From positions 9,307 through 73,306 of the forward strand of contig CAKPMB010000002.1 of assembly GCA_934167885.1 (NCBI GenBank): DNA of 64,000 nt. The letters run 5' to 3'. The DNA comes from an uncultured Bacilli bacterium (GTDB lineage Bacteria > Bacillota_I > Bacilli_A > RF39 > UBA660). Positions 1,542 to 50,343 of this stretch are shown in pieces; within the stretch, counting starts at the first letter, position 1, and every line of letters starts with the position of its first letter. Both the position numbers and the translations under genes were made by a program. The notes under the pieces are model-generated. The model was not told the DNA's origin. It worked only from the letters and a program-made list of their open reading frames with translations, and did not search any database.

Positions 1542-3020
1542 CTATTTAATACGATGCACTGTTTTAGTTTCTTCTTCTAAAAAGGCCATATTATAATATG
1601 CCACAACGTCTTCGAGCATTTTATATTGCATTAAAAGGCGCATTATTGGATGAATAATCACATCATCTCGTTTATAAGCAAAATCTCTTGCATCAACAAT
1701 AAAGCGTTTATCATTATCATATATTCCAGAAACACCATCTATAGTTTGAATCTTTTCCTTGCATTCAGAAGGAATACTAATCAAACGGTTATGAACTCTA
1801 TTTGATCCTAGAAAGAAATATAATTCATTAAGCGGATCAACCGTCATTTGAGTTCCTGTAAAACCAGCCCCTGCGAATGATAGACCTGATAAGGCATGAA
1901 AAACCTCACTATACTTTAAAATAGGATGTTTAGAATATGTCATATAGCCAAAATATTGCACATACTTACTATTACCATTTTCATCATAATATTTCTTGCC
2001 ACGTCTATTTTTAACAAATTCTCTTAAAAATTCATCCGATAGAACCTCATGATTTATAATGCCCTTCATCAAAGAAGTCATATCGGAAGCTGTTGTAAAT
2101 AAACCAGCATGTCCCATTAATCCTGCATTATATTCTAAAAGGCGGGCCTTAGGATCATGCACTATTCCCTTATCAACACCACTATCAATAAAAATATGGC
2201 CATCTTTCATAACTGATGTTGCAAAGTTATTTGAAGCAACACGATTAAGTTTATAAGATGGAATCAAATAATTAGTATCAACCATCGCAAATTTTTTTAA
2301 AATAGTATCATCTAAGTATTGATAATATGACTCCTTAGTAACCGCTTCAATAACATACTTTAAAACCATAATTCCTAAATCAGTATAAGGATTTAGATTA
2401 GAGCTTGCATGATTAATAGAAACATTAAAGAAAGCTTCCATCGCCTTTTCATAAGGCATTTCATTAAGTCGACCATTAGTTATTAAAGGAACGTTAAATG
2501 ATAATAAATCTTCGATGGTAACACCTTTTAAATTAACAAAACGCTTATCATATTTTAGTATTTCATCATCTAAATTAATAAAACCTCTTTCTACTAGATT
2601 CATAATGCAAAGACTTGTAAAAATCTTTGTAATACTTGCTAAATCAAAAATAGTATCAGCTTGCATTTCATTAACATTTGGAACGATACATCCATTTTCA
2701 AGTTTTACTTCTTCACTATTTCCAACAATAATTGTCTCTTGATGCTTTGGTGTTCCATAACTCATAACAGCCCCTGAAACAATCTTTTTTTGAAGAAAAA
2801 AATCTCTTATTTCATTTTCAATACCACTTTTTTGATAAAGTTCTTCGCGCCACTTAGACATAGAAGATGCAGGAGACGCTATAATAACATCACACACAGG
2901 CTTTAACATTGTATAGTAATCTTTCTTACTAAACAAATTCTTTCTATCTTCATCTAGACTTTCATTTTGTTTTTTCATTAAATCATCAATATACTTATCT
3001 AAAAATTGTGTAAACATCAT
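1542..3020 (-). CDS. serine hydrolase, beta-lactamase / PBP4*-like family
   Basis: SxxK active-site motif in DLASITKIFTSLCIMNLVERG typical of class C beta-lactamase-fold serine hydrolases; 492 aa. Confidence 0.65.
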   Translation of the reverse strand: MMFTQFLDKYIDDLMKKQNESLDEDRKNLFSKKDYYTMLKPVCDVIIASPASSMSKWREELYQKSGIENEIRDFFLQKKIVSGAVMSYGTPKHQETIIVGNSEEVKLENGCIVPNVNEMQADTIFDLASITKIFTSLCIMNLVERGFINLDDEILKYDKRFVNLKGVTIEDLLSFNVPLITNGRLNEMPYEKAMEAFFNVSINHASSNLNPYTDLGIMVLKYVIEAVTKESYYQYLDDTILKKFAMVDTNYLIPSYKLNRVASNNFATSVMKDGHIFIDSGVDKGIVHDPKARLLEYNAGLMGHAGLFTTASDMTSLMKGIINHEVLSDEFLREFVKNRRGKKYYDENGNSKYVQYFGYMTYSKHPILKYSEVFHALSGLSFAGAGFTGTQMTVDPLNELYFFLGSNRVHNRLISIPSECKEKIQTIDGVSGIYDNDKRFIVDARDFAYKRDDVIIHPIMRLLMQYKMLEDVVAYYNMAFLEEETKTVHRIK

Positions 3021-3111: not shown

Positions 3112-3141
3112 AAAAAAACCCTTAAAATAAGGGTAATTTTT
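3112..3141 (-). terminator. rho-independent terminator downstream of tRNA-His (hairpin accctta/taagggt plus T-run on minus strand)
   Basis: 7-bp perfect inverted repeat flanked by A7 (T7 on minus strand) and TAATTTTT; the hairpin could function bidirectionally. Confidence 0.5.
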
Positions 3142-3145
3142 AATC

Positions 3146-3222
3146 TGGGGCGGAATAAGGGGATCGAACCCTTGCATACCAGAGCCACAATCTGGCGTGT
3201 TAACCACTTCACCAATACCGCC
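3146..3222 (-). tRNA. tRNA-His (GUG)
   Basis: Reverse complement folds as a cloverleaf: anticodon stem ccaga/tctgg, loop ttGTGgc; extra 5' G(-1) pairing with C73 directly before CCA, which is a His-specific feature; T-loop TTCGATC. Confidence 0.85.
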
Positions 3223-3287
3223 ATAACAATGGTTATTATAGCATATATTATTTTTTAATGCAACCATTTGTTAATTATTTTTTTTAA

Positions 3288-4058
3288 TTATCGTAATACC
3301 TTTTTCAAAGACATAATAGCTCCTTTTTCAATACGTGAAACTTGAGCCTGGCTTATACCTAATTCTTGCGCTATTTCCATCTGCGTCTTACCAATTATAT
3401 ATCTCTTATCCAAAACATCACGTTCTCTATTATTTAATTCTTTAAACGCTTCTTTTAAAGCAATATTCATAATAGTATCAGCATTCTTACCATCTTCTAA
3501 CTGCTCATACAAATAAATAGTATCTCCCCCATCATTATATATAGGTTCAAATATTGATACTGGATCATACATAGATTGCGTGGCAATTACAATATCATTT
3601 TCTTTAACGCCTAATTCTTTAGCAAGAACTTCATCGCTTGGAACATATCCTAATTTATTTGTTAATAACTCTCTTAATTGCATAGTCTTATATGCTAAAT
3701 CCTTTATCGAACGACTAACTCTCAACATACTATTATCACGCAAATATCTACGTATTTCACCAGCAATCATTGGACAAGCATAGGTGCTTAATTTTAAGTT
3801 ATAACTCAAATCAAAATTATCAATAGCCTTAATTAACCCAATAACCCCTATTTGAAATAAATCATCCAAATTATCCGTTCTATTGCTATATTTTTGTAAA
3901 ATACTTAATACTAATTTCAAATTACCATTTATTAATTTTTGTTTAGCGCTCTCGTCACCACCTTGCAATCTTAAAAACAATTCTTTAGTCTCTTGTTCAC
4001 TTAAAACTTTAATATTATTAGTATTTATTCCTGAAATCTCTACTTTATGCTTTGCCAT
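3288..4058 (-). CDS. sigG: sporulation sigma factor sigma-G (SigF/SigG family)
   Basis: Near-colinear similarity by eye to B. subtilis SigG: KVEISGINT...LQGGDESAKQKLINGNLKLVLS...DDLFQIGVIGLIKAIDNFD...IAGEIRRYLRDN...DPVSIFEPIYNDGGD...GKTQMEIAQELGISQAQVSRIEK. Confidence 0.85.
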   Translation of the reverse strand: MAKHKVEISGINTNNIKVLSEQETKELFLRLQGGDESAKQKLINGNLKLVLSILQKYSNRTDNLDDLFQIGVIGLIKAIDNFDLSYNLKLSTYACPMIAGEIRRYLRDNSMLRVSRSIKDLAYKTMQLRELLTNKLGYVPSDEVLAKELGVKENDIVIATQSMYDPVSIFEPIYNDGGDTIYLYEQLEDGKNADTIMNIALKEAFKELNNRERDVLDKRYIIGKTQMEIAQELGISQAQVSRIEKGAIMSLKKVLR

Positions 4059-4063
4059 ATAAA

Positions 4064-4096
4064 AATCCTTTCAAAATTATATTGTTTGAAAGGATT
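4064..4096 (-). promoter_or_regulatory. 12-bp perfect hairpin between the murC stop and sigG start that contains the sigG Shine-Dalgarno sequence (translational block / terminator-like)
   Basis: aatcctttcaaa / tttgaaaggatt inverted repeat with a 9-nt loop; on the minus strand the 3' arm carries AAAGGA 7 nt before the sigG ATG. Confidence 0.55.
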
Positions 4097-4107
4097 AATT
4101 TTATACA

Positions 4108-5406
4108 TTATTTCTTTAATAATTCTTTATATTTATCAATCATTGGACTTATATTAGCACAACTCATAAAACATATTACAGCATCTTTATACGCTAATAA
4201 CTTTGAACACGTTGATAAATCAATCATCTCACTATTTGGAATATTTAAAACTAAACTAGTGGATGATATATTAGGGTAATCTCTGCTTGACTCACGATCA
4301 CACTTTATTTCCATTAAATAAACTTTATCGTATAAACGCAATGATTTACAAAAGTCATCAAATAAGGCTTCAGTTCTTGAATAAGTATTTGGCATAAAAA
4401 CAGCGATAACGGGTTTATGAGGATATTTTTGATGAGCTGAATCATATGTTACCCTTATTTCAGTAGGATGATGAGCATAATCATCAACCAAAACGACATC
4501 CCCAATAACTTCTTCATTAAAACGACGCTTAGCTGGATGATAATCATCTAACACTTCTTCGATTGTTTCCTTAGGAACATTATATAATATACCAATCATA
4601 ATCATGGCTAAAGCATCTCTTAACAGATGATCCCCAAACATTGGCACACTATAATGATCATAAAAATTACCATGATAATATACATCAAAATGCGTTTTAT
4701 TAGCAAATACTTGTTTATTCTTAATTACTAAATCATTGTCATCATTAAAACCATAATAAAAAACTTTCTTAATTTTTAATTTACGAATATTTTCATCATC
4801 GCCACAAGCAATAACTAAATTTTGACATTTGGAAACAAATTCTTGATATGCTTCAATCATACACTCAATATTAGGATATGTTTCAGTATGATCAAGTTCA
4901 ATATTCGTAATTACTACATTATATGGATGATATGATAAAAAATGTTTATTATATTCACATGACTCTAAAACAAATAAATGGCTATCCTTATTACCATGAC
5001 CACTACCATCACCAACAAAATAATTACAACCCTTTAATATTTTAGATATGAGCAAACTAGTTGTTGTTTTACCATGCGTTCCACATACACATATACTTTC
5101 CATATTCATTGTTAAATTGCCAATTAATTCATGATAAGGAACTATTCTGTAACCCATATCATGCATTCTTTTAACTTCATGATGTTCTAAATTAATTGCG
5201 GCTGTATAAGTAACAATTGTATCCTTTGAAAGTGTTGGCAAATTATCTTTATCATATATTTTGATTCCACGTTCTAATAAGCCACGCATCGTAAATTTAT
5301 ATTCTTTGCAATCATCATATCCGATAACTTCATTACCAAGATCATAGAGAATACTTGCAAGAGTACTCATACCCGCTCCCTTTATACCAATAAAATAATA
5401 CTTCAT
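4108..5406 (-). CDS. murC: Mur ligase family, UDP-N-acetylmuramate--L-alanine ligase (MurC-like)
   Basis: N-terminus MKYYFIGIKGAGMSTLASIL (MurC-type nucleotide-binding Gly-rich motif); TGTHGKTTTS P-loop; 432 aa. Confidence 0.75.
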   Translation of the reverse strand: MKYYFIGIKGAGMSTLASILYDLGNEVIGYDDCKEYKFTMRGLLERGIKIYDKDNLPTLSKDTIVTYTAAINLEHHEVKRMHDMGYRIVPYHELIGNLTMNMESICVCGTHGKTTTSLLISKILKGCNYFVGDGSGHGNKDSHLFVLESCEYNKHFLSYHPYNVVITNIELDHTETYPNIECMIEAYQEFVSKCQNLVIACGDDENIRKLKIKKVFYYGFNDDNDLVIKNKQVFANKTHFDVYYHGNFYDHYSVPMFGDHLLRDALAMIMIGILYNVPKETIEEVLDDYHPAKRRFNEEVIGDVVLVDDYAHHPTEIRVTYDSAHQKYPHKPVIAVFMPNTYSRTEALFDDFCKSLRLYDKVYLMEIKCDRESSRDYPNISSTSLVLNIPNSEMIDLSTCSKLLAYKDAVICFMSCANISPMIDKYKELLKK

Positions 5407-5491: not shown

Positions 5492-6397
5492 ATGAAAAAT
5501 GTATTAAAAGACTGTTGTCTATGTCCAAGAAAATGTCATGTTAATAGATATATAAACAAAGGATTTTGTGGTGAAAGTGATAAAATAAGAGTAAGCCTTG
5601 CTAAACTATTTTTCTATGAAGAACCACCTATTAGTGGTCAAAACGGTAGTGGCGCAATATTCTTTTCAGGTTGTAACTTAAAATGTTGTTTCTGTCAAAA
5701 TCATGATATTTCTTTTAATAATTATGGTATAAATATCACTATTAAAAGATTAAGCGAAATAATGTTAGAATTACAAAATAAAAAGGCTCATAACATTAAT
5801 TTAGTAACACCCACTATTTATGTTCCTAAAATTATTAAAGCTGTAAAATTAGCAAGAAAAAATGGTTTAAAAATTCCAATAATTTATAATAGTAGTGGTT
5901 ATGAAAATATCGAAACAATTAAAATGTTAAATGGCATAATTGATGTATATTTACCAGATTTTAAATATTTTGATAATAGTCTTGCTATAAAATATTCAAA
6001 AGCATCAAACTATTTAGAAAACGCTAAAGCAAGTCTTGAAGAAATGTATAGACAAACTGGACCATGTCAATTTGATGAGGATGGCATGATTAAAAAAGGT
6101 TTAATTGTGCGCCACTTAATACTACCAACCCATATTAATGATACTAAGAAAGTTCTTTCATATCTTTATAACACTTACCACGATAATATTTATATGAGTA
6201 TTATGAATCAATATACACCTAATAAATATGTATCATTTGATGAATTAAACTCTCCTCTTAGTAAAAGTGAATACAATGAAATAGTTGATTATGCCGTTTC
6301 TTTAGGGATTGAAAATGCTTTCTGTCAGGAAGATGAGACTGTAAGTGAAAGTTTTATTCCATCCTTTAACTTAGAAGGTATTAAAAAAGATAAATAA
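5492..6397 (+). CDS. radical SAM protein, PflX-like (pyruvate formate-lyase activating enzyme homologue, COG1313-like)
   Basis: N-terminal CCLCPRKC cluster followed by the radical-SAM motif GCNLKCCFCQN; 301 aa. Confidence 0.55.
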   Translation: MKNVLKDCCLCPRKCHVNRYINKGFCGESDKIRVSLAKLFFYEEPPISGQNGSGAIFFSGCNLKCCFCQNHDISFNNYGINITIKRLSEIMLELQNKKAHNINLVTPTIYVPKIIKAVKLARKNGLKIPIIYNSSGYENIETIKMLNGIIDVYLPDFKYFDNSLAIKYSKASNYLENAKASLEEMYRQTGPCQFDEDGMIKKGLIVRHLILPTHINDTKKVLSYLYNTYHDNIYMSIMNQYTPNKYVSFDELNSPLSKSEYNEIVDYAVSLGIENAFCQEDETVSESFIPSFNLEGIKKDK

Positions 6398-6409
6398 GCC
6401 GATTAAAGT

Positions 6410-7255
6410 TTATTTATCTTTTTCTATCTGATTAAGACATGCTTCAATAGTATTCTCCATAAGCATAACAACAGTCATTGGCCCTACACCACCAGGAACA
6501 GGAGTTATTTTTGATACCTTATCATAAACATCGTCAAAGAAAACATCCCCATATAATTTACCATCCACGCGATTAATACCCACATCAATTAAGACAGCTC
6601 CACGTTTTACCATATCTCTTTTAATAAATTCCTTTTGACCAATAGCTACAATCAAAATATCAGCTTTTTTGGTTATTTTCGCTAAATCACGGGTTTTAGA
6701 ATGGCACATAGTAACAGTAGCATTAGCATTTATTAATAAATTCATCATTGGTTTACCAACTAAAATACTTCTTCCAACAACAACTGCGTTCTGTCCTTCA
6801 AGCAAAACGTTTTCTTTTTTTAATAAATACATAATTCCTTTAGGCGTGCAACTAACTAAGCCTTTTTTATTATTCAAAAGATAGCCAGCATTAACAAAAG
6901 TTAGACCATCAACATCTTTTTCGGGTTTTATTGTATTAACTATTAAATTTTCATCCATGCCTTTTGGAAGAGGCAATTGCACAATGATACCATGAACTCG
7001 ATTATCATTATTTAATTTATTTATAACCTCACATAAATCATGTTCACTAATTTCATCATAATGCAAATGTTGATAATTGATACCAATCTCATTAGCACAC
7101 TTTTCTTTACTTCTAACATATACACGACTTGCAGCATTATCACCAACGCTAATAACTGTTAAAGATGGCTTAATATCCATATTAGAAACTTTAGCTTTTA
7201 ATTCTTCTTTTAAAAGCTTACTATATTTTTTACCATCAATTATTTTACTTCTCAT
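6410..7255 (-). CDS. folD: bifunctional methylenetetrahydrofolate dehydrogenase / methenyl-THF cyclohydrolase
   Basis: Whole-length FolD pattern: IIDGK..., YVRSKEKC, IIVQLPLP, VVVGRSILVGKP, ITPVPGGVGPMTV; 281 aa. Confidence 0.9.
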   Translation of the reverse strand: MRSKIIDGKKYSKLLKEELKAKVSNMDIKPSLTVISVGDNAASRVYVRSKEKCANEIGINYQHLHYDEISEHDLCEVINKLNNDNRVHGIIVQLPLPKGMDENLIVNTIKPEKDVDGLTFVNAGYLLNNKKGLVSCTPKGIMYLLKKENVLLEGQNAVVVGRSILVGKPMMNLLINANATVTMCHSKTRDLAKITKKADILIVAIGQKEFIKRDMVKRGAVLIDVGINRVDGKLYGDVFFDDVYDKVSKITPVPGGVGPMTVVMLMENTIEACLNQIEKDK

Positions 7256-14469: not shown

Positions 14470-17365
<2,896 letters not shown>

Positions 17366-41953: not shown

Positions 41954-42508
41954 AAGATGAAAGAAGACATTATAAATTATATTCCCTTAAATGAACAAGA
42001 AAAAAGTGATAAGGAAGTTATGTTAACATATCTTGAAAACTTTGATAATTGTTATACTCGTGATAATATTCTAGGACATTTTACAGCATCATGTTTTATT
42101 GTTAATGAAAACCGTGATAAAGTTTTAATGGCATATCACAATATTTATAAATCTTTTGCTTGGCTTGGAGGACATGCTGATGGAAATACTAACTTACTAG
42201 AAGTAAGTATTAAAGAAGCGAGAGAAGAAAGTTCTATTAAATCATTAAAAATTTTAGATAATAACATTTTTAGTTTAGATGTTATCCCTGTAAAGGGACA
42301 CATTAAAAGAGGAAAATATATTAGTGCTCATATGCATTTAAATGTTACTTATTTATTTGAAGCTAGTGAAAACGATGAATTAGCCATTAAAGAAGATGAA
42401 AATAGTGATGTTCAATGGTTAGAAATTGCTAAATTAGATGAACTAATTAATGAAAAAGATATGCTTTATTATTATCATAAGTTTATTGATCGTATGAAAA
42501 AATATTAA
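41954..42508 (+). CDS. NUDIX hydrolase
   Basis: Nudix box GGHADGNTNLLEVSIKEAREESSI; start chosen at the internal Met because the longer ORF overlaps the preceding gene. Confidence 0.6.
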   Translation, partial: KMKEDIINYIPLNEQEKSDKEVMLTYLENFDNCYTRDNILGHFTASCFIVNENRDKVLMAYHNIYKSFAWLGGHADGNTNLLEVSIKEAREESSIKSLKILDNNIFSLDVIPVKGHIKRGKYISAHMHLNVTYLFEASENDELAIKEDENSDVQWLEIAKLDELINEKDMLYYYHKFIDRMKKY

Positions 42509-42543
42509 AATTATAGGTAATCCATAATTTTAATATTTTTTAT

Positions 42544-47659: not shown

Positions 47660-47695
47660 AAAAAAATGTCTATTACTATAAATAGACATTTTTTT
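47660..47695 (-). terminator. terminator after ftsW/rodA (aatgtctat/atagacatt hairpin; A7/T7 flanks, bidirectional geometry)
   Basis: 9-bp perfect stem overlapping the FtsW stop; lies only about 20 nt upstream of the fhs start codon. Confidence 0.5.
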
Positions 47696-50097: not shown

Positions 50098-50304
50098 ATC
50101 ATCCATCCTACAAAAGAAATTATAACATTTTAGTAAAATTTTGTCTATATCCACCATATTCAATGTAAATGTGCAAAAAAACTAATTAACTCTATAAGCT
50201 AACAAAACATAAAAATGATATTGAAATTTATTACAGAAAAAAAGCACAATATGTAATTTATTAAAATTTATCTAAAAATTATCCTTTAAGTAGTTGAATT
50301 TAAA

Positions 50305-50340
50305 AAGTCTAATAAGCAAAATTATGTACTTATTAGACTT
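50305..50340 (-). terminator. 12-bp hairpin terminator immediately after the NUDIX gene (aagtctaataag/cttattagactt)
   Basis: Perfect 12-bp stem, 12-nt loop, T-runs on both sides; marks the lower boundary of the accessory operon. Confidence 0.55.
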
Positions 50341-50343
50341 TTT

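Follow-up and report, generated by a model that had tools for sequence, protein, structure and literature searches.

The gene for sporulation sigma factor G, sigG, lies in the DNA analysed here 49 nt downstream of murC and is co-directional with it, an arrangement that makes murC a possible source of read-through transcripts and raises the question of how the synthesis of sigma-G could be confined to transcripts from a promoter of its own. In Bacillus subtilis, several controls are layered on sigG, and premature or misplaced sigma-G activity is harmful (PMC5942855). A sequence-only reading of the present locus had proposed that a hairpin in the murC-sigG spacer sequesters the sigG Shine-Dalgarno (SD) sequence in read-through RNA and leaves it free in transcripts that begin within the hairpin, at a forespore-specific promoter. 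That proposal is considered here in the light of RNA folding, promoter motifs, and the sigG upstream regions of other bacteria, together with scans of the whole stretch of 64,000 nucleotides that was analysed (the window), which has a G+C content of 28%.

The best NCBIfam match of the murC product is TIGR01082 (murC), at 308 bits and under the cut-off of 335, and the Pfam Mur_ligase N, M, and C domains are present in the MurC proteins of relatives. The sigG product is matched best by NF006071 (SigG, 351 bits versus 253 for SigF, slightly under the curated cut-off), and a protein search returned SigG homologues of up to 98% identity; neither sigE nor any other sigma paralog was found within the 64-kb window. 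The features of the locus are as follows, in the order in which they are read on the minus strand.

4108..5406, minus strand: murC, encoding UDP-N-acetylmuramate--L-alanine ligase (432 aa; ORF list, translation, and NCBIfam)
4110-4108, minus strand: murC stop codon TAA, 11 nt ahead of the hairpin 5' arm
4102..4106, minus strand: candidate -35 element GTATA of a forespore-type (sigma-G/sigma-F) promoter, a match to GHATR, 17 nt from the -10 element
4085..4096, minus strand: hairpin 5' arm AAUCCUUUCAAA, which holds the anti-SD UCCUUUC and lies within the promoter spacer, upstream of the predicted start
4076..4084, minus strand: hairpin loop CAAUAUAAU, 9 nt, which holds the candidate -10 element
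4084-4078, minus strand: candidate -10 element CAATATA, in the hairpin loop, matching six of the seven positions of CATnnTA
4064..4075, minus strand: hairpin 3' arm UUUGAAAGGAUU, which holds the SD GAAAGGA (4072-4066) and the predicted start at about 4071
4059..4065, minus strand: U-run UUUUUAU, the SD-AUG spacer and a terminator-type U-tract right after the stem (from the sequence)
3288..4058, minus strand: sigG, encoding sporulation sigma factor G (256 aa; NCBIfam NF006071 and homologues), with its ATG at 4058
3221-3146, minus strand: tRNA-His, beginning 66 nt past the sigG stop codon
3134-3118, minus strand: terminator-like hairpin with a T-run after tRNA-His, the downstream end of the unit

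No terminator was seen between sigG and tRNA-His in the window scan (3118-3288), and sigG transcripts may therefore continue through the tRNA gene. A sigma-A-like sequence, TTAACA-16-AATAAT, is found near tRNA-His at 3274-3247 on the minus strand, and past both genes the same strand carries a PBP4B/beta-lactamase-like gene (1542-3020), a gene for a ComGE-like prepilin (1202-1531), and spoIIP (316-1167). At a distance from the locus, GC skew is near zero between 36000 and 44000 and strongly negative elsewhere in the window; the genes turn to the plus strand in this interval, which also contains tRNA-Met (38503) and tRNA-Glu (40190). An Rfam scan of the window returned tRNAs only, with no family at the murC-sigG spacer.

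The spacer hairpin and access to the Shine-Dalgarno sequence

Read as sigG-sense RNA between the murC stop codon and the sigG start codon, the 49-nt spacer is UAA-UGUAUAAAAUU[AAUCCUUUCAAA]CAAUAUAAU[UUUGAAAGGAUU]UUUAU-AUG, with the arms of the inverted repeat set in square brackets. The perfect 12-bp stem between 4064 and 4096 that had been described from the sequence is exact, for a repeat finder returned two arms of 12 nt (4064-4075 and 4085-4096) that are 100% complementary and have 9 nt between them. The ribosome-binding site had likewise been placed correctly: the SD lies wholly inside the 3' arm, with 7 nt from its GGA to the ATG, and the hairpin ends 5 nt before that codon. The 43-nt hairpin segment folds at -11.7 kcal/mol (z = -4.2), a value equalled by 1 of 200 shuffled sequences. 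Folding with 86-91 nt of context lowers the energy to between -15.4 and -15.9 kcal/mol (z from -3.0 to -3.6) and lengthens the helix by A-U pairs that take in the A and the U of the sigG AUG. Other AU-rich hairpins of similar size and terminator-like appearance occur in the window, so that the hairpin by itself is not unusual there; what sets it apart is that it covers the SD and is conserved.

The fraction of SD bases paired in the minimum free energy structure was dropped as a measure of SD access because it is unspecific, exceeding 0.9 in 15% of the window genes. It was replaced by the SD opening energy, defined as the free-energy cost of releasing the SD core from pairing, computed with 70 nt upstream and 20 nt downstream. 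In read-through RNA, the opening energy of the sigG SD is 10.9 kcal/mol, the highest among the 12 window genes that have a strong SD, of which the next highest stands at 4.3 kcal/mol. For the predicted promoter-proximal RNA, the value falls to 0.1 kcal/mol when 20 coding nucleotides are included, and extending the coding part to 38 nt yields no more than a weak, non-significant fold (-5.4 kcal/mol, z = -1.7). The two RNAs thus differ in folding in the manner that the sequence-only reading had supposed. Among 159 distinct sigG loci taken from public genomes and metagenomes, the opening energy has a median of 7.3 kcal/mol, which drops to 2.6 kcal/mol once the 5' part is shuffled; for 226 other genes of the same loci the median is 1.8 kcal/mol, and just 3.5% of them reach 7.3 kcal/mol or more. 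Chance as the origin of the hairpin was rejected on these two grounds, the folding relative to shuffled sequences and the SD opening energy relative to other genes.

A candidate forespore promoter nested in the hairpin

Promoters recognized by B. subtilis sigma-G follow the consensus -35 GHATR, 17-18 nt, -10 CATnnTA, and those of sigma-F consist of a -35 element, 14-15 nt, and GGnnAnAHTR. In the sigma-G frame, the murC-sigG spacer matches the B. subtilis consensus at five of five -35 positions, with a 17-nt spacer that contains the hairpin 5' arm, and at six of seven -10 positions, the exception being the third -10 base, an A where the consensus has T. In the sigma-F frame, the GG upstream of the -10 element that is the hallmark of sigma-F is absent, and for this reason the promoter looks more sigma-G-like than sigma-F-like. 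The sigma-F/sigma-G promoter that the earlier reading had anticipated thus has a candidate, GTATA-17 nt-CAATATA. With the last -10 base numbered -7, as in B. subtilis (PMC5942855), the predicted +1 falls at about 4071, the A after G4072, which is 7 nt past the last -10 base and inside the 3' arm. The predicted transcript starts AAAGGAUUUUUAUAUG and includes neither the 5' arm nor the loop nor the initial bases of the 3' arm; its leader of about 13 nt, starting 1-2 nt ahead of the SD core, would be unusually short.

Motifs of the sigma-G type are not enriched across the window (7 matches on both strands versus about 4.4 expected), and since so degenerate a motif is expected only about that often in the entire window, a match at exactly the sigG spacer is unlikely to have arisen by chance. 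No SASP gene with which forespore promoters could be calibrated was found in the window. In an alignment of 60 sigG upstream regions, hairpin-less ones included, the most conserved part is TG[A/T]ATA-17/18 nt-CAnnAT; the -35 region TG[A/T]ATA is nearly invariant, the C and the A of the -10 element are invariant or nearly so, and GAAAGGA is also among the most conserved columns.

A separate observation concerns ligA. A perfect sigma-F-type motif, GAATA-14 nt-GGAAATAATA (16462-16490, minus strand), ends 12 nt ahead of the ligA start (16473) and is the sole sigma-F-type match in the window. It lies inside the preceding nucleotidyl-transferase ORF and has an AGGTG SD right past the predicted start, a short-leader geometry similar to that of sigG; its position before ligA is probably due to chance.

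On the reading that we favor and regard as probable, the 49-nt spacer is a compact insulator that merges a promoter, a terminator, and an SD-blocking hairpin, with sigma-G being made from its own promoter only. The forespore-type promoter would have its -35 element just 5' of the hairpin, the 5' arm as its spacer, and the loop as its -10 element, and polymerase carrying sigma-F or sigma-G would start at about 4071, inside the 3' arm. Because of this start, the leader of about 13 nt would begin at the SD (AAAGGA) and be unable to form the hairpin. RNA entering from upstream, here by read-through from murC, would instead carry both arms. The 12-bp stem and the UUUUUAU that follows it would terminate most incoming transcripts at about the sigG AUG, and any transcript that escaped would keep its SD and the A and U of the AUG paired, leaving sigG untranslated. 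The outcome would be that sigma-G is made solely from its own cell-specific promoter.

If the true sigG mRNA began upstream of 4096, it would contain the hairpin as a strong cis-repressor, an enlarged counterpart of the 5-bp leader hairpin of B. subtilis, that would have to be opened by a factor, a nuclease, or ribosome breathing. A leader hairpin is known to dampen sigG translation in B. subtilis, where strengthening it nearly abolishes expression (PMC5942855), and the hairpin of the loci studied here persists where the upstream gene is divergent, as described below. Such repression nevertheless seems improbable, given that in essentially all loci the sole conserved promoter-like motif predicts a +1 within the 3' arm, that the window offers only 11 nt from the murC stop codon to the 5' arm, and that an essential sporulation gene would be silenced if its SD were covered by a stem of -11 to -20 kcal/mol.

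Conservation, covariation, and probable termination

Scans of GTDB species and metagenomes yielded sigG relatives of no more than 63% SigG identity, and murC was upstream of sigG in none of them. Closer relatives (72-98% SigG identity) were obtained by protein search followed by contig retrieval. The hairpin is kept in 12 of 13 of these close lineages, in which the upstream genes differ. The murC-sigG adjacency is preserved in loci L082, L087, L089, and L084-86, and the other close relatives have upstream of sigG a gene for a DUF975, DUF1016/YhcG, Ig-like surface, GtrA-type glycosyltransferase, or hypothetical protein. The SD arm and an anti-SD of the form UC[C/U]UUU[C/U] are preserved in the close relatives, although the anti-SD lies in a promoter spacer that requires no fixed sequence, and the upper stem has undergone compensatory changes (CAAA/UUUG, CCAAC/GUUG, CUAA/UUAG, CAUCA/UGAUG, and CCUC/GAGG). 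The exception is provided by L084-86, in which the promoter is kept as GTTTA-17-CATTATA and the anti-SD is lost; there, murC is followed by a separate small hairpin with T7 and then by the -35 element, a natural example of a stand-alone terminator.

Among more distant loci (56-63% identity, 75 nt of upstream sequence compared), the same layout is encountered across a large group of metagenome-assembled genomes of gut 'Bacilli', 'Tenericutes', and Erysipelotrichaceae. Of the more distant sigG loci of Bacilli type, about 70% keep it irrespective of the upstream gene; the hairpin is absent from about 30% of Bacilli-type and about 40% of Clostridia-type loci. In some Clostridia the version is longer: the stem has 20 bp, and the promoter spacer together with an GGAAATAAT -10 element makes up its 5' arm. 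Clostridium-type metagenome-assembled loci (L029, L033, L039, L110, L125, L137, L148, and L153) carry a hairpin of about 20 bp, ACCTTCTTTTGGAAATAATG / CATTATTTTCAAGAGGAGGT, about 65 nt upstream of sigG. As the 5' arm of the Clostridium-type hairpin is the promoter spacer plus the sigma-F-type -10 element, the leader is exactly complementary to the core promoter, and this hairpin seems to represent the same device in a long, B. subtilis-like form.

The frequency of the hairpin is nearly as high with a divergent upstream gene (57% versus 65%, scored as an SD opening energy of at least 5 kcal/mol; opening energies differ, p = 0.017), and it is higher where no sigE-like gene lies directly upstream (69% versus 51%). 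The hairpin is thus not tied to spoIIG read-through, nor strictly to co-directional neighbors. Its near-equal frequency behind divergent genes implies that protection from co-directional read-through is not the whole story or that the element has simply been inherited. The conserved gating of sigG in a different gene context that the sequence-only reading had put forward is supported by these comparisons, the hairpin, anti-SD, and promoter motif all being retained behind other upstream genes.

When RNAalifold was applied to a plain MAFFT alignment of the 60 upstream regions, it returned no structure because the register of the 5' arm shifts by 1-2 nt relative to the -10 element. A covariance model was then built from 10 gap-free sequences. 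Over 614 kb of sequence that included the whole window, all matches of this model but one were sigG-upstream sites; the single match away from a sigG start (L030:2533-2585) scored 24 bits with an E value of about 0.1 and lies about 420 nt upstream of sigG. The site in the window scores 56 bits on the sense strand and 31 bits on the antisense strand. The 75-row model alignment mixes sense and antisense matches of palindromic sites, and the sense rows were filtered by script. Standard pairs fill 94.6% of the pair cells of the 42 distinct sense rows versus 79% in shuffles (0 of 500 as high), counts that are inflated by the fitting of the alignment to the model, and the covariation score is 0.54 versus 0.23 for shuffled rows. 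For the unfiltered two-strand alignment, the corresponding values are 90.8% versus 77.1% for pairing and 0.425 versus 0.184 for covariation, with 50-69% pairing in slid controls.

In the window, the repeat is a perfect palindrome across the -10 element and both strands fold equally well, as would suit the operator of a dimeric regulator overlapping the sigG promoter, that is, a palindrome selected in DNA. The relatives speak against such an operator, which we judge extremely improbable: they have 78 G.U pairs versus 4 A.C mismatches, their stems contain bulges, and the sequences of the arms vary while pairing stays, where a protein-binding site would conserve sequence rather than complementarity. 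The covariance model, moreover, scores the sense strand far higher. Because the 78 G.U pairs would be mismatches on the opposite strand and in duplex DNA, the constraint acts on sigG-sense RNA and not on a palindrome in DNA, and these patterns point to the sigG-upstream element being an RNA structure on the sigG sense strand.

The same hairpin has the appearance of an intrinsic terminator, in that an A-rich tract precedes the stem and a U-run follows it directly. At -11.2 kcal/mol, the stem falls between the extremes of the other terminator-like hairpins of the window (-6.7 to -17.7 kcal/mol). No separate murC terminator was found, either in the spacer sequence or by a consensus terminator scan. 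The scan did not call the murC-sigG hairpin itself, which departs from the canonical geometry (a loop of 3-8 nt and a G+C-rich stem) in having a loop of 9 nt and G-C at 3 of 12 pairs; the other terminator-like hairpins of the window are just as AU-rich. Perfect AU-rich palindromes of 14-18 bp flanked by A- and T-runs occur at 6384-6423, 42497-42541, 47660-47695, and 50302-50343 (-10.7 to -17.7 kcal/mol); these four are likely to be bidirectional terminators and illustrate the look of a terminator in a genome of 28% G+C. A bidirectional terminator was considered for the murC-sigG hairpin as well and was rejected, as no convergent gene is present and the strand specificity of the G.U pairs speaks against it.

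Placed right after the murC stop codon and with an energy close to that of its counterparts in the window, the stem with its U-run could be an ordinary murC terminator that exerts no control over sigG and overlaps the sigG SD as a by-product of tight packing, an outcome that the sequence-only reading had counted as a refutation. The likeness to a murC terminator holds, but the element accompanies sigG when the upstream gene is any of at least six unrelated ones, or even a divergent one, its anti-SD is in fixed register with the promoter motif in most aligned Bacilli-type loci, and the opening energy of the sigG SD is far above that of other genes, all of which makes a role confined to murC very improbable. 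As the element is conserved with sigG and not with murC, termination and translational locking are better regarded as complementary roles than as competing ones.

Evidence for a probable part in termination was obtained from Bacilli-type loci, divided at an SD opening energy of 5 kcal/mol into those with (at least this value, n = 50) and those without (n = 22) the hairpin. A T-run of at least four between the SD and the ATG is present in 34 of 50 loci with the hairpin versus 3 of 22 without it (Fisher p = 2.4e-5), and a separate terminator upstream of the -35 element in 3 of 50 versus 11 of 22 (Fisher p = 4.9e-5). The separate terminator of hairpin-less loci typically abuts the -35 element, and the intergenic distance is 58 nt in loci with the hairpin versus 118 nt in loci without it. 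The hairpin and U-run therefore appear, from these sequence comparisons, to do the job of a terminator, and the element probably serves as intrinsic terminator and translational lock at once.

This coupling also bears on the reading closest to the earlier proposal, in which read-through from murC is efficient, the hairpin merely hides the SD, and the U-run is no more than AT-rich spacer. The burial of the SD and AUG in read-through RNA would suffice for such a lock, the B. subtilis precedent has been described in these terms and a spoIIGA-sigE-sigG read-through transcript exists there (PMC5942855, PMC3789822), and the 9-nt loop and AU-rich stem, in which the scan called no terminator, are suboptimal for termination. 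A lock alone nevertheless seems unlikely, for it does not account for the company that the U-run keeps with the hairpin, for the separate terminators present just upstream of the -35 element where the hairpin is missing, or for a murC without any other terminator. The interpretation from which this work started is thus supported, and is widened from a translational lock to a dual terminator and translational insulator.

Significance and comparison with known systems

Since the cassette would shut off incoming transcripts at both the transcriptional and the translational level, whatever lies upstream, it may have freed sigG to relocate. We suggest, tentatively, that a self-contained and portable cassette, with terminator, forespore promoter, and ribosome-binding site nested in about 45 nt, could have enabled the departure of sigG from the ancestral spoIIGA-sigE-sigG cluster and its establishment downstream of housekeeping genes, murC among them, in lineages of gut Bacilli, the cassette and the stand-alone terminator abutting the -35 element being alternative solutions. 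If this is true, strict insulation of sigG would be a general selectable requirement of endospore formers and not a peculiarity of spoIIG read-through in B. subtilis. The idea of a read-through-blocking hairpin dates from 1988, and the literature searched still presents it only as a proposal. The compensatory and sense-strand G.U pairing across many uncultured Firmicutes provides first comparative support for that idea, to which are added the retention of pairing regardless of the upstream gene and the trading of places between the hairpin and a stand-alone terminator; together these suggest that what is really required is to insulate sigG from foreign transcription of any kind. A literature search of limited coverage returned no report of broad conservation or of a trade-off with stand-alone terminators. 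The element should be useful for annotating sigG promoters in metagenome-assembled genomes, and the nesting of terminator, promoter, and ribosome-binding site is a tidy natural design for a context-independent expression cassette.

Several known elements can be compared with the murC-sigG spacer. Intrinsic terminators share with it the stem-loop, the direct U-run, the A-rich tract before the stem, the position right after a stop codon, and a similar energy; it is unlike them in its 9-nt loop, its 3 G-C pairs out of 12, its nested promoter, and its use of the SD of the next gene as the 3' arm. The candidate promoter resembles the sigma-F/sigma-G promoters of B. subtilis and of Clostridium difficile (Saujet et al., 2013, PMC3789822) in its -35 element G[A/T]ATA, in its -10 element CA..AT(A), and in a spacing of 17-18 nt in the sigma-G frame or 14-15 nt in the sigma-F frame, and is unlike sigma-F promoters in having no G upstream of the -10 element, the hallmark according to the same study.

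Two hairpins of B. subtilis are relevant. The first is a distinct 5-bp 'RBS hairpin' (-6.2 kcal/mol) in the leader of the PsigG transcript, which dampens translation 2-4 fold and is reported to be conserved among spore-forming Bacilli (PMC5942855). Like the present element it occludes the sigG ribosome-binding site; however, it lies in the promoter-proximal mRNA, and the predicted promoter-proximal RNA of the window has no room for one. The second is the 'very large hairpin' of 20 or more bp at sigG (spoIIIG), which, in the summary that Mearls et al. (2018, PMC5942855) give of Masuda (1988) and Sun (1991), was proposed to block the translation of spoIIGA-sigE read-through RNA and is unable to form in the PsigG transcript. 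The sequence-only reading had quoted this precedent correctly as to its content but had treated as known what is there only 'proposed' (PMC5942855).

The murC-sigG element is a compact form of this control already proposed for B. subtilis and not a new kind of mechanism. Like the large hairpin, it is situated directly upstream of sigG with its 3' arm over the ribosome-binding site, its 5' arm is upstream of the forespore-promoter start, here a predicted one, so that it would form solely in upstream-derived RNA, and its purpose would be the same, namely that no sigma-G is made outside the control of its own promoter. It differs in having murC and not spoIIGA-sigE as the upstream gene, in a stem of 12 bp versus 20 or more, and in a sigG start codon that is ATG and not GTG. 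Its -10 element is in the loop and its predicted start in the 3' arm, giving a leader of about 13 nt, whereas the B. subtilis leader is longer. The murC-sigG element also carries a U-run that, among the Bacilli-type loci compared, statistically substitutes for a separate terminator.
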